From an uncultured bacterium (GTDB taxonomy: Bacteria; Verrucomicrobiota; Kiritimatiellia; RFP12; UBA1067): a DNA stretch of 64,000 bases. This document shows positions 20,777 through 62,473 of the stretch, piece after piece (within the stretch, counting starts at the first letter, position 1; each line of letters begins with the position of its first letter). The DNA lies in contig CACWIW010000003.1 of assembly GCA_902761035.1 (NCBI GenBank), positions 508 to 64,507 on the forward strand, in the 5' to 3' direction. The notes beneath the pieces were generated by a model that was not told the origin of the DNA, made no database searches, and worked only from the letters and a program-made list of their open reading frames with translations. The position numbers were made by a program, and so were the translations under genes.

Positions 20777-21243
20777 TGGCCGACAAGAAAAAGAAGAAGG
20801 TCCCCACTGGTGACTTGACCGTCAACCGCAGGGCCTGGCACGACTATGCCGTTCTCGACAAGATCGAGTGCGGCATCGTGCTTTCCGGCACCGAGGTGAA
20901 GGTGGTGCGCAACGGAGAGGCCTCTCTTTCCGGCTCGTATGGCGCGGTGTTGGGCGGCGAGCTGTACGTGGTGCAGATGAACATCCCCGTATACGCGTTC
21001 GGCAACCGCTTCAACCACCGTCCGCAGCAGAACCGCAAGTTGCTCGTCCACAAGAAGCAAGTGGAGGAGCTGCGCCTCAAGACCGAGGCCAAGGGCCTCA
21101 CGCTCATCCCGCTGCGCCTCTACCTCAAGAACGGACGCATCAAGCTTGAAATGGGCGTGTGCCGCGGCAAGGCCCTGCACGACAAGCGCGATACGCTGAA
21201 GAAAAAGGCGCTGAAGCGCGACATGGAACGCGGCGATGTCTAG
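20776..21243 (+). CDS. smpB: SsrA-binding protein
   Basis: It contains NRRAWHDYAVLDKIECGIVLSGTEVKVVR ... RKLLVHKKQVEEL ... KGLTLIPLRLYLKNGRIKLEMG, and it is 155 aa. Confidence 0.95.
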   Translation: MADKKKKKVPTGDLTVNRRAWHDYAVLDKIECGIVLSGTEVKVVRNGEASLSGSYGAVLGGELYVVQMNIPVYAFGNRFNHRPQQNRKLLVHKKQVEELRLKTEAKGLTLIPLRLYLKNGRIKLEMGVCRGKALHDKRDTLKKKALKRDMERGDV

Positions 21244-23041
21244 CGTGCTTATCCGTGGTGGCTTGGTAATCGACGGCACGGGGCGTGCCGCCTTCCCCGC
21301 CGACGTGCTGGTGGAGGGTGACCGCATCGCCGACGTTATCGAGCGCGATGAATCGGGGAGGGCCGCGCTCCGTCGCGGCCACGCTGATTCCGAAATCGAC
21401 GTCTCCGGCTGCCTCGTCACTCCTGGCTTCATCGACTCCCATGCCCACAGCGACGCCTACCTGCTCATCGAACCAGACGCCCCCTCCAAACTTTCGCAGG
21501 GAATCACCACCGAAATCAACGGACAGTGCGGCGGAAGCGTGGCACCCCGCTACGGCGCGGCGCGGCTTTCAAGCGACTGGGCGTCAATGACTTATCCTGG
21601 CGGCGACGGCATGCCAGGTCCTACGTGGCGGTCGATGTCCGAGTACCGCGCCCTGCTCGACCAGGTGCGCCCCGCCATCAACACCGTCCAGTTCGTGGGT
21701 CACAACACGTTGCGCAGTTCCGTTATCGGCTATGACGCCGTGCGTGCCACGCCCGAGACGTTGCGCGCGATGGAGGATTTGCTCTCGCGCGAACTCGACG
21801 ACGGCGGGTGGGGTCTCACGACGGGTCTCATCTACCAGCCCGGCAAGTACTCCGACGCGGCCGAGGTGACGGCGCTCGCTCGCGTGGCGGCGGCGCGCGG
21901 CGGGTACTATGCCACGCACATGCGCTCCGAGGGCGACGCCATCATCGAGGCGATTGACGAAGTGCTCGACCTCGTGCGCGCCACGGGCATCCGCGCGGAA
22001 ATCTCGCACCTCAAGACGAGCGGCAAGCGCAATTGGGGCAAGATCGACGCCGTGCTGGAGAAGATCCAGCGCGCCGTCGACGCGGGCGAGCTGCTCGGCA
22101 GCGACCGCTATCCGTACTGCGCGGCGGGCACGGACCTTGACGTTGTCTTTCCCGACTGGGCGGGCGAAGGGGGCGTGGTGGCTGAAATCAAGCGCCTCGC
22201 AGATCCCGCAACCCGCACTCGAATCGCCGCCGAGATCGACGCGCAGGACCGCGACTGGTCCACGGTGATGATCGGGGGTACGTGGAGCGAAGCGACGCGC
22301 GCATGCAGTGGGAAAAGTATTGAGGAAATAGTAAGGTCGGGGTGGCGGGCCCCTTCGGGGTGGCGGGCCTCCGTGCCCGCAGCTGGGTGGCAGGCCTCTT
22401 CGGGGTGGCGGGCCTCCGTGCCCGCAGCTGGGTGGCAGGCCTCGAGGCCTGCCACGGATTTGCGGGCGCAGAGGCCCGCCACCCCGACTGGGCCCGCCAC
22501 CCCGAATTTGCCCGCCACCCCGAAAGATACCACTCCAGGCACTCTCATTTGCGATATCTTGAGCGCGGACGCTTGCCGCACGGGGGCGTTCTTCTTCGGC
22601 ATGAGCGAAGAGAACCTCCAGAAAATCCTTTCGCGGCCGTGGATCGTGCCTGGGAGCGACGCCTCGCTGCGCGCGCCGTGGGGTCCGCTCGGCGCGGACC
22701 ATCCCCACCCGCGCGCGTATGGCACGATGCCGCGTTTCTTCAGAATGCTCACGGGCCGCGTGGAAGGGCACGCGCGCATCTGTTCGCGTGAAGAGGCAAT
22801 CAGGCGCATGACCTCCGTGCCGGCGGAGCGCTTCGGCATCCGCGACCGCGGAGTGATCCGTGCGGGAGCGTATGCTGATATTACGGTGTGGAACGAGGAT
22901 ACGTTCCGCGAGACGGCAACCTATACGTCACCGCATTCGTTCTGCGAGGGTGTTGAGGCCGTGCTGGTCAACGGCTCGGTTTCATATCGCGCCGGCAAGT
23001 TCACGGGCAATCGCTCCGGCCGTTTCCTTGAGAGGTTTTAA
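21236..23041 (+). CDS. D-aminoacylase / N-acyl-D-amino-acid deacylase family amidohydrolase carrying in-frame repeat insertions
   Basis: It contains LIRGGLVIDGTG...DVLVEGDRIADV and the metal site PGFIDSHAHSD, then YATHMRSEG, EISHLKTSG, SDRYPY, and FGMSEENLQKIL...PGSDAS. Confidence 0.82.
   Translation: MSSVLIRGGLVIDGTGRAAFPADVLVEGDRIADVIERDESGRAALRRGHADSEIDVSGCLVTPGFIDSHAHSDAYLLIEPDAPSKLSQGITTEINGQCGGSVAPRYGAARLSSDWASMTYPGGDGMPGPTWRSMSEYRALLDQVRPAINTVQFVGHNTLRSSVIGYDAVRATPETLRAMEDLLSRELDDGGWGLTTGLIYQPGKYSDAAEVTALARVAAARGGYYATHMRSEGDAIIEAIDEVLDLVRATGIRAEISHLKTSGKRNWGKIDAVLEKIQRAVDAGELLGSDRYPYCAAGTDLDVVFPDWAGEGGVVAEIKRLADPATRTRIAAEIDAQDRDWSTVMIGGTWSEATRACSGKSIEEIVRSGWRAPSGWRASVPAAGWQASSGWRASVPAAGWQASRPATDLRAQRPATPTGPATPNLPATPKDTTPGTLICDILSADACRTGAFFFGMSEENLQKILSRPWIVPGSDASLRAPWGPLGADHPHPRAYGTMPRFFRMLTGRVEGHARICSREEAIRRMTSVPAERFGIRDRGVIRAGAYADITVWNEDTFRETATYTSPHSFCEGVEAVLVNGSVSYRAGKFTGNRSGRFLERF
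21356..21380. repeat. 25-nt GC hairpin repeat GGGAGGGCCGCGCTCCGTCGCGGCC (copy inside the CDS)
   Basis: It is identical to 62449-62473. The stem is GGCCGCG / CGCGGCC with a 6-nt loop. Here it encodes GRAALRRG. Confidence 0.9.
22337..22523. repeat. about 187-bp GC-rich palindromic element lying in frame within the D-aminoacylase gene
   Basis: There are three GGGGTGGCGGGC copies on the left (22339-22350, 22357-22368, 22402-22413) and three inverted GCCCGCCACCCC copies on the right (22474-22485, 22492-22503, 22511-22522). The central perfect palindrome GGCAGGCCTCGAGGCCTGCC lies at 22434-22453. An exact 45-bp tandem duplication lies at 22353-22397 and 22398-22442. Confidence 0.85.
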
Positions 23042-23133
23042 TTGTCCATGTAGGCTCGATTGTCCATGTAGAACATGTAAAACATATAAATCATTTGCAT
23101 GTTTTTCTGTTCTACCTGTTCTACATGGACAAT
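23041..23133. repeat. palindromic element ATTGTCCATGTAG(AAC)
   Basis: Direct copies lie at 23041-23053 and 23059-23074. The exact 16-bp inverted copy GTTCTACATGGACAAT lies at 23118-23133. CTGTTCTAC-type direct repeats lie in the loop. Confidence 0.8.
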
Positions 23134-62448: not shown

Positions 62449-62473
62449 GGGAGGGCCGCGCTCCGTCGCGGCC
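62449..62473. repeat. 25-nt GC hairpin repeat GGGAGGGCCGCGCTCCGTCGCGGCC (intergenic copy)
   Basis: It is identical to 21356-21380. It lies 9 nt upstream of the ackA start. Confidence 0.9.

Follow-up and report, generated by a model that had tools for sequence, protein, structure and literature searches.

An in-frame cluster of REP units in a variable loop of a D-aminoacylase-family gene of uncultured Kiritimatiellae

Rickettsia palindromic elements (RPEs; RPE-1 to RPE-10), reportedly described by Ogata et al. in 2000, are palindromes that lie in frame in protein genes; they add a peptide while the gene stays functional, and several families and several genes are involved. RPE-1 units are single elements of roughly 100 to 150 bp in the AT-rich genomes of obligate intracellular bacteria and are not known to have a transposase. 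A second kind of palindrome found inside open reading frames (ORFs) is the repetitive extragenic palindrome (REP), a hairpin with a tetranucleotide foot. Here, we analyze a cluster of REP units that is read in frame through a D-aminoacylase-family amidohydrolase gene of an uncultured Kiritimatiellae bacterium (GTDB lineage Kiritimatiellia; RFP12; UBA1067). The gene lies on contig CACWIW010000003.1 of assembly GCA_902761035.1, positions 508 to 64,507 of which form the 64,000-nucleotide stretch called the window below; coordinates refer to the window unless another contig is named.

REPs were divided by Di Nocera, De Gregorio and Rocco (2013; PMC3733652) into two superfamilies, tagged GTAG and CGTC, and most GTAG-20 units of Opitutus terrae have a GTGG foot. 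In that survey most REPs were intergenic, whereas REPs lying wholly inside ORFs were found in several species, most of all in O. terrae and R. conorii (PMC3733652). Intragenic dimers encode 20 to 30 residues and clusters 43 to 82; double inserts in one gene occur, as do different REPs at about the same recB site in two Xanthomonas species, and intragenic REPs were proposed to be neutral on account of their position in flexible linkers or loops (PMC3733652). Quentin et al. (2018; PMC6006769) reported in-frame REPs inside subclass 2.4 tnpA-REP genes, a GT[AG]G foot for class 2, and “double-foot” REPs, products of a deletion in the middle of inverted dimers. As shown below, the Kiritimatiellae element shares these features, and it can be followed through a large set of orthologues at a single site.

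The REP cluster, its host gene and its genomic family

The element and its host gene consist of the following parts.

21236 to 23041, plus strand: host gene, D-aminoacylase-family amidohydrolase (Amidohydro_3), 601 amino acids (aa), its start overlapping the end of smpB
22337 to 22523, plus strand: compound REP cluster, imperfect palindrome, read in frame; with linker codons, residues 367 to 431
22339 to 22350, plus strand: head-only REP unit GGGGTGGCGGGC (GTGG foot and half stem)
22354 to 22443, plus strand: exact 45-nt tandem duplication
22357 to 22380, plus strand: full REP unit GGGGTGGCGGGC-CTCCGT-GCCCGC; versions with CTCCGT or CTCCGC loops flank a transposase-like gene on contig C55
22402 to 22425, plus strand: second full REP unit (duplicated copy)
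22430 to 22455, no strand assigned: central hairpin, variant head GGGTGGCAGGCC and its complement, the innermost stem of the RNA fold
22462 to 22485, minus strand: inverted full REP unit GCGGGC-GCAGAG-GCCCGCCACCCC
22492 to 22521, minus strand: two inverted head-only units with an 18-nt period (22492 to 22503 and 22510 to 22521)

Positions 22337 to 22523 form an imperfect palindrome of 187 nt and about 70% G+C, in which the parts follow each other as head, full unit, variant head, duplicated full unit, central hairpin, inverted full unit and two inverted heads. Six GGGGTGGCGGGC heads are present, three on the plus strand (at 22339, 22357 and 22402) and three on the minus strand (at 22474, 22492 and 22510), against 0.77 expected per window; none of 100 shuffles got to six. 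The arms are 83 to 91% complementary (87% for 22337-22398 versus 22444-22505) around a perfect 20-nt palindromic center, GGCAGGCCTCGAGGCCTGCC, at 22434 to 22453. The exact 45-nt (15-codon) duplication, in which 22354-22398 and 22399-22443 match without mismatches, was also detected in a register shifted by 14 nt (96%). An earlier note on this DNA had proposed the in-frame palindrome of about 187 bp, its three heads mirrored on either side, the 20-bp center and the 45-bp duplication, and all of these details were confirmed, coordinates included.

Because the units are inverted with their feet outward, the whole cluster folds as one long hairpin. The RNA fold has an energy of -172.3 kcal/mol (z = -11.3 versus dinucleotide shuffles), and none of 200 shuffles folds equally well. 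Stop codons are absent from all six reading frames of the element. The ends of the element are REP feet, and no target-site duplication was seen at its borders (...AGTAAGG / TCGGGG ... CCCCGA / AAGATACC). By its sequence, therefore, the element is a REP cluster of the bacterial interspersed mosaic element (BIME) type, inverted and with the feet outward, and not a single long element. Two other readings of the hairpin were dropped. A terminator or promoter was abandoned when a pattern search of the element gave no match, and a known RNA family when an Rfam scan of the element gave only a subthreshold likeness to miRNA-precursor hairpins (22 to 30 bits versus cutoffs of 83 to 100). A further palindrome lies just past the amidohydrolase stop codon (23059-23133), where the Rfam scan likewise gave only subthreshold miRNA-like hairpins.

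The ORF at 21236 to 23041 passes through the element in frame, and the 65 encoded residues (367 to 431) read RSGWRAPSGWRASVPAAGWQASSGWRASVPAAGWQASRPATDLRAQRPATPTGPATPNLPATPKD. The host protein matches PF07969 (Amidohydro_3) at 7.6e-28, and the solved proteins nearest to it are N-acyl-D-glutamate deacylase (3gip) and D-aminoacylase (1m7j), each with an E value of about 1e-68. All of the metal-ligand motifs (HxH, Cys, His, His and Asp) line up with 3gip, and the alignment breaks at query residues 300 to 447, which stand opposite only residues 290 to 337 of 3gip. H69, H71, C98, H228 and H258 do not vary among 64 orthologues, and D475 is conserved in at least 90% of them. Outside the insert, the ratio of nonsynonymous to synonymous substitution rates (dN/dS) is 0.08 to 0.16 versus seven orthologues (dS about 0.5). 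Together with the (nearly) invariant ligands, this indicates that the gene is under purifying selection while carrying the insert.

An AlphaFold2 model built from the 64 orthologues has the D-aminoacylase fold (Foldseek template modeling [TM] score of 0.79 to 1rjq, 1m7j and 3gip), to which the carbohydrate de-N-acetylase PpOngB (9kb1) is equally close. From these matches the host gene is assigned to the D-aminoacylase/N-acyl-D-amino-acid deacylase family, with an N-acyl-D-amino acid as its putative substrate. In the model, residues 378 to 428 are a coil with a predicted local distance difference test (pLDDT) score below 50 between helices 362-368 and 434-444. Surface exposure of the insert is deduced from this low model confidence and from the variability among orthologues.

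The units of the element belong to a family dispersed over the genome, a draft of 315 contigs with 6.14 Mb and 59.7% GC. The unit has a 6-bp GCGGGC/GCCCGC stem on a GTGG foot, with a loop of 5 to 6 nt, and can also be written TCGGGGTGGCGGGC-loop-GCCCGC. Exact GGGGTGGCGGGC heads number 59 in 44 clusters on at least 35 contigs, and heads with at most one mismatch number 144 genome-wide. In each of the six heads of the element, as in 59 of the 59 exact genomic heads, GTGG immediately adjoins the stem on its 5' side. The full unit, GGGGTGGCGGGC-N4-7-GCCCGC, occurs 44 times in the host genome, its loop differing between copies, 13 times in one congener and 0 to 2 times in 29 other relatives, and a reversed-pattern control gave no matches. 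At many loci another hairpin, CAACGGGC-loop-GCCCGTTG, comes after the REP unit. Which frame of the unit is read depends on the gene, the result being SGWRA, GVAGV, ARHPE or TPATP.

Pfam domains were found on both sides of an in-frame unit in a GH2 enzyme, MutL, a Peripla_BP_2-FecCD fusion and an exosortase-EpsI fusion, and on one side only (significant matches) in a GH2-like protein (C45; five 27-nt repeats) and a GH106 enzyme. For a wider count, genes were called with a crude self-trained procedure (3958 genes, 85.8% coding, GC at third codon positions [GC3] of 0.75) and repeats were collected as 14-mers with a hairpin filter and a flank-coding filter, so that the resulting figures are approximate. 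In this census, 190 of 519 hairpin-bearing repeat intervals are gene internal, the gene's frame being the best one on both flanks (151 genes), and 216 further intervals are intergenic. An 11-mer census (count of at least 25) was discarded, its threshold lying under the chance expectation for a 60% GC genome.

Several smaller observations concern the same repeats. Same-strand GGGGTGGCGGGC heads spaced by no more than 60 nt lie at multiples of three in 16 of 16 cases (18, 24, 27, 33, 42 and 45 nt; eight loci); 15 of these spacings fall within gene calls, and no out-of-frame tandem array of the head was seen. The MutL insert (C38:13177-13346) consists of two units of the window's REP family, inverted to each other, in the linker that joins DNA_mis_repair to MutL_C, and recalls the published finding that intragenic REPs are enriched in genes for DNA repair. 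At C55:9980-12968, two adjacent ORFs run into REP units at their 3' ends, their last 15 to 30 residues being repeat encoded (...ARHPDVGAVKE and ...AARHPEVEEGGKE). Other short hairpin repeat families in the genome are TGTGACACCTAGGTGTCACA (about 180 copies) and the GTAG-footed GGTAGGGCGCGATCACCGAGCGCGCC (about 125) and CGGTAGGGCGGTCGCCCCGCGACCGCC (about 100), and long tandem arrays of AATTGTTCACAAATCT also occur. Loss of SbcCD as the reason why long palindromes are tolerated was ruled out: SbcD is present (172.7 bits), so the tolerance is not explained by its loss.

Four Y1_Tnp (PF01797) matches exist in the genome, and a single one of these genes, at C55:13894-15117, is flanked by the REP family of the window. 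Its Y1_Tnp match (C55:14032-14343) scores 28.8 bits, above the Pfam cutoff of 23, and the protein contains the motifs NHLH, WQ and YIQLNP. We call it RAYT-like after its best NCBIfam match, REP-associated tyrosine transposase (RAYT), although the score is below the curated cutoff. Four clusters of the window's family lie within 1.5 kb of the gene, where 44 clusters spread over 6.1 Mb would give about 0.02; of these four, two are read in frame inside the RAYT-like gene itself, and the genomic copies closest in sequence to the units of the window are those on C55. Of the in-frame REPs of this gene, one set lies past the catalytic core (...AGAEARLGVAGAEARHPEV...) and another at the C terminus, with a conserved domain of about 100 residues between them. 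By association, this putative protein would be the one that mobilizes the REP units.

One loop followed through the orthologues

The host protein has thousands of relatives, the close ones coming from rumen and gut Kiritimatiellae metagenome bins in which the rpoZ-smpB-amidohydrolase order is conserved. Apart from a second loop near residue 40, no site but the stretch from ...EI(V/L) to PGxL(I/V)C, which contains the insert, shows large differences in length. This stretch has about 6 residues in basal Kiritimatiellae orthologues, compared with 67 in the window protein, and the alignment thus delimits the frame-preserving insertion that the earlier note had proposed. Among orthologues from genomes without the REP family, none with a homologous segment was found. 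The intervening DNA is a multiple of three in 86 of 86 orthologous loci, from 6 to 207 nt.

The orthologue tree was built with the insert columns removed; its basal lineages have 18 nt at the site. The short and long loop states require at least 14 changes on this tree, and well-supported branches force 9 to 10 of them. Inserts of the GWRA type are limited to one 12-member clade (97% support), in which the site ranges from 12 to 201 nt, always in multiples of three. Members of this clade form a graded series, given here as length at the site, locus and content.

12 nt, L085: TCGGGGACCACCCC, outer ends only; probably a deletion remnant
30 nt, L008: single REP hairpin
30 nt, L050: double-foot hairpin
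66 nt, L088 and L089: intermediate forms, L089 with a double-foot hairpin
75 nt, L090: intermediate form
102 nt, L087: REP(+)-center-REP(-)
156 nt, L005: longer cluster
186 nt, L086: longer cluster
201 nt, window: the element under study

The 12-nt form was considered as an ancestral empty site and rejected, as L085 is nested in the REP-bearing clade and keeps the outer ends TCGGGG...ACCCC. It is more likely a deletion remnant, and the true short states are the 18-nt loops of the basal lineages.

The same site is filled differently in other lineages. Among the sister lineages, L009 and L048 have GTAG-footed units there, L007 has a unit of another family adjoining a retained right foot, GCCACCCC, and L006 carries a 78-nt perfect hairpin. 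Some 40 or more loci of the genome that contains L006 match its insert, and about 10 loci of the L017 genome match parts of the insert found there. In another clade (L025, L026, L038 and L055), the site holds tandem 24-nt units, GAATGGTC-rich and read as EWSNGRMV, up to 207 nt long; this fill is a tandem repeat and not a palindrome, and is followed by a Ser/Pro-rich tail.

The second variable loop (residues about 36 to 52) also differs in length and content among orthologues, and in the window it contains a unit of another repeat family.

21356 to 21380, plus strand: 25-mer unit GGGAGGGCCGCGCTCCGTCGCGGCC of a different hairpin repeat family, read as GRAALRRGH in the second variable loop

This 25-mer had been regarded in the earlier note as a second insertion in the same gene. 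It indeed belongs to a separate repeat family, with 77 genomic copies at no more than two mismatches; a second exact copy lies in the window at 62449 to 62473. In orthologues, the second loop holds other repeat-like segments, for example, GRVRSPSGPSGGLGEAALPD and PGCPVSPG. This loop is moderately confident in the model (block 41 to 50, mean pLDDT 67). By contrast with the two loops, the conserved core is free of repeat inserts in 120 orthologues.

The long form of the window, with its duplicated SGWRASVPAAGWQAS, is found in four 601-aa proteins and in one 600-aa protein of the same architecture, which come from contigs of 3.1, 3.2, 7.7, 68 and 103 kb. Three of the proteins (P0001, P0123 and P0126) differ from the window protein by one residue each, at 416, 422 and 424, always within the insert (chance about 0.001). 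Such clustering is compatible with relaxed constraint, and also with more frequent mutations or sequencing errors in the hairpin.

Origin of the insert and competing explanations

Very probably, the cluster, made of REP units of one genome-specific family, goes back to a REP that entered a tolerant enzyme loop in frame and was then remodeled there. A REP unit would have entered a loop of about 6 residues in the ancestor of the window's clade, and the repeat would then have grown and shrunk in place by gain and loss of units. Slippage between heads may have made the 18-nt and 45-nt duplications and central deletions may have left the double-foot hairpins, while selection would have discarded every variant that broke the frame or the fold. 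Since the units are stop-free in all six frames, any multiple-of-three variant leaves the enzyme intact, and such variants are kept because the extra 65 residues are a disordered Pro/Ala/Gly/Trp/Arg-rich loop away from the conserved core. The best-supported account is, therefore, that three things make the insert survivable: stop-free units, a disordered loop and a gene that is still constrained. On this account the insert is presumably translated and appears to be neutral, or nearly so, for the enzyme. That unrelated families have repeatedly come to occupy these two loops across the class is in keeping with such a tolerance filter.

Several points weigh against this explanation. (i) A hairpin of about 90 bp with -172 kcal/mol in the mRNA could be an RNase III substrate or an obstacle to ribosomes, and expression may thus be impaired although the frame is kept. 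(ii) The best NCBIfam match of the C55 protein, REP-associated tyrosine transposase (REP_Tyr_transpos), reaches 56 bits, under the curated cutoff of 80. (iii) The AlphaFold2 model is mediocre overall (mean pLDDT, 70.5). (iv) The genome-wide census depends on a crude, self-made gene caller.

Among the alternatives, the one that survives best concerns the cause of the hot spot only and is compatible with the explanation above. It holds that the loop is a targeted landing pad, to which either some DNA feature at the locus or a resident REP would steer REP insertion, tolerance not being the main cause; a resident REP could do so since REPs tend to insert beside REPs. The many state changes on the tree, with 9 to 10 of at least 14 forced, speak for such targeting, as do the unrelated palindromes that occupy the same site and are each dispersed in their own genome (L006 and L017), the GTAG-footed units of L009 and L048, and the right foot retained in L007 beside a unit of another family. 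However, the second loop also gathers different repeats and the core never does, and a filled second loop together with a clean core is the pattern that a selection filter alone would produce. Moreover, no target motif common to the short-loop alleles was seen, and a target-site duplication is absent. Directed insertion is therefore possible but, in our estimate, clearly the less probable cause of the hot spot.

A broader form of the same idea, to which we give slightly less credence, is that REP-type repeats get into genes of rumen and gut Kiritimatiellae frequently enough to be a general source of loop insertions, and that some of the loops are landing pads at which unrelated repeat families arrive repeatedly, owing to targeting and not to tolerance alone. 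The loop with the insert, with its at least 9 to 14 state changes, and the second loop of the same gene, which behaves in a similar way, would be examples. Just as tentatively, the targeting agent might be existing hairpins or feet on single-stranded DNA. If this were true, REP/RAYT systems would be a directed source of protein length variation and not passive passengers.

It is unlikely that the hairpin is a regulator at the RNA or DNA level, kept to tune expression of the gene or operon (by ribosome pausing, RNase III processing or stabilization of the upstream rpoZ-smpB message, for example), with the encoded peptide a by-product. The fold is indeed extremely stable, REPs are known to affect mRNA stability and translation (background in PMC3733652), and the long form is kept in five related assemblies. 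Nevertheless, the insert ranges from 12 to 201 nt among close relatives and is replaced by unrelated sequences elsewhere, which speaks against any conserved function of the RNA. The element matched no Rfam family and no terminator or promoter pattern, and the amino acid changes between near-identical strains lie in the insert, where at least some of them must alter stem bases.

A selected role for the Pro/Trp/Arg-rich 65-residue loop itself, as a lid, a tether or an interaction module, is less likely still. The insert adjoins the region most unlike solved D-aminoacylases (the gap against 3gip described above), and the frame is always preserved. However, the peptide is the mere translation of genome-wide repeat units, which are read in other frames in other genes (TPATP, ARHPE and GVAGV); its length and sequence vary among relatives, and it is modeled as a low-confidence coil. 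Finally, that the palindrome or its copy number was produced by short-read metagenome-bin assembly can be set aside as extremely improbable: palindromes and tandem repeats do assemble with errors, and the genome is a draft of 315 contigs, but the long form with the same 65-residue insert recurs on five separate contigs of different sizes (3.1 to 103 kb), and related versions occur in independent assemblies from other samples.

Comparison with described in-frame repeats

Among the classical features of REPs, the short hairpin unit with a stem of 5 to 13 bp and a loop of 2 to 20 nt, the GT[AG]G foot, the dispersed, lineage-restricted copies and the inverted pairing are all found in the family of the window. 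The extragenic location is not, as the copy lies inside an ORF; intragenic REPs are an accepted subset (PMC3733652). By its foot and its units, the element is assigned to the GTAG superfamily of REPs, as a GTGG-footed member linked to a RAYT-like gene.

The closest parallel is O. terrae, whose REPs are likewise GC-rich hairpins with a tetranucleotide foot, which is GTGG here as in most O. terrae GTAG-20 units; both hosts, Opitutus and Kiritimatiellae, belong to the Planctomycetes-Verrucomicrobia-Chlamydiae (PVC) superphylum. As with the intragenic REPs of PMC3733652, several families share a genome, inverted dimers fold into larger structures, units lie in frame inside ORFs of known proteins, and one gene can carry two inserts. 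The present case differs in its host class (rumen Kiritimatiellae) and in its unit sequences. It also differs in that one loop could be followed through 86 orthologues, with at least 9 to 14 state changes and a graded series of 12 to 201 nt. Furthermore, the intragenic share of the repeats looks unusually high here (about 37% in a rough census), whereas REPs were mostly intergenic in PMC3733652.

The C55 locus resembles the REPtrons of TnpA-Y1 class 2 in that a Y1 HUH protein (NHLH...WQ...YIQLNP) is flanked by its own REP family. As in subclass 2.4, REPs are found in frame inside the transposase-like gene, and the double-foot hairpins (5' GTGG...CCAC 3') of L050 and L089 correspond to those described in PMC6006769. 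Unlike the RAYTs of REPtrons, the C55 protein stays below the family cutoff (56 versus 80 bits) and has an extra C-terminal domain.

The parallel with RPEs that the earlier note had drawn stands as a functional analogy, since in both cases palindromes of several families are read in frame in several genes, which stay functional and gain a peptide. As homology, however, it probably does not stand: the insert is a cluster of 24-nt, GC-rich, GTGG-footed REP units with a candidate RAYT, and sequence homology to RPEs would not be expected of an element that is modular and about 70% G+C. [quoted passage not shown]

The locus provides a clean natural series in which selfish hairpin repeats were written into a working enzyme and then remodeled, and it could serve to find out whether REPs insert at preferred targets; what makes it most interesting is that one loop was used again and again. 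Inserts of this kind are relevant to annotation, as they resemble low-complexity junk or frameshift-prone regions, and to protein engineering, as they mark tolerant loops. The case, from a related phylum, agrees in every feature with the descriptions in PMC3733652 and PMC6006769 and is not a new kind of element. Rather, it extends in-frame REPs from Rickettsia and Opitutus to Kiritimatiellae, where they are apparently common.

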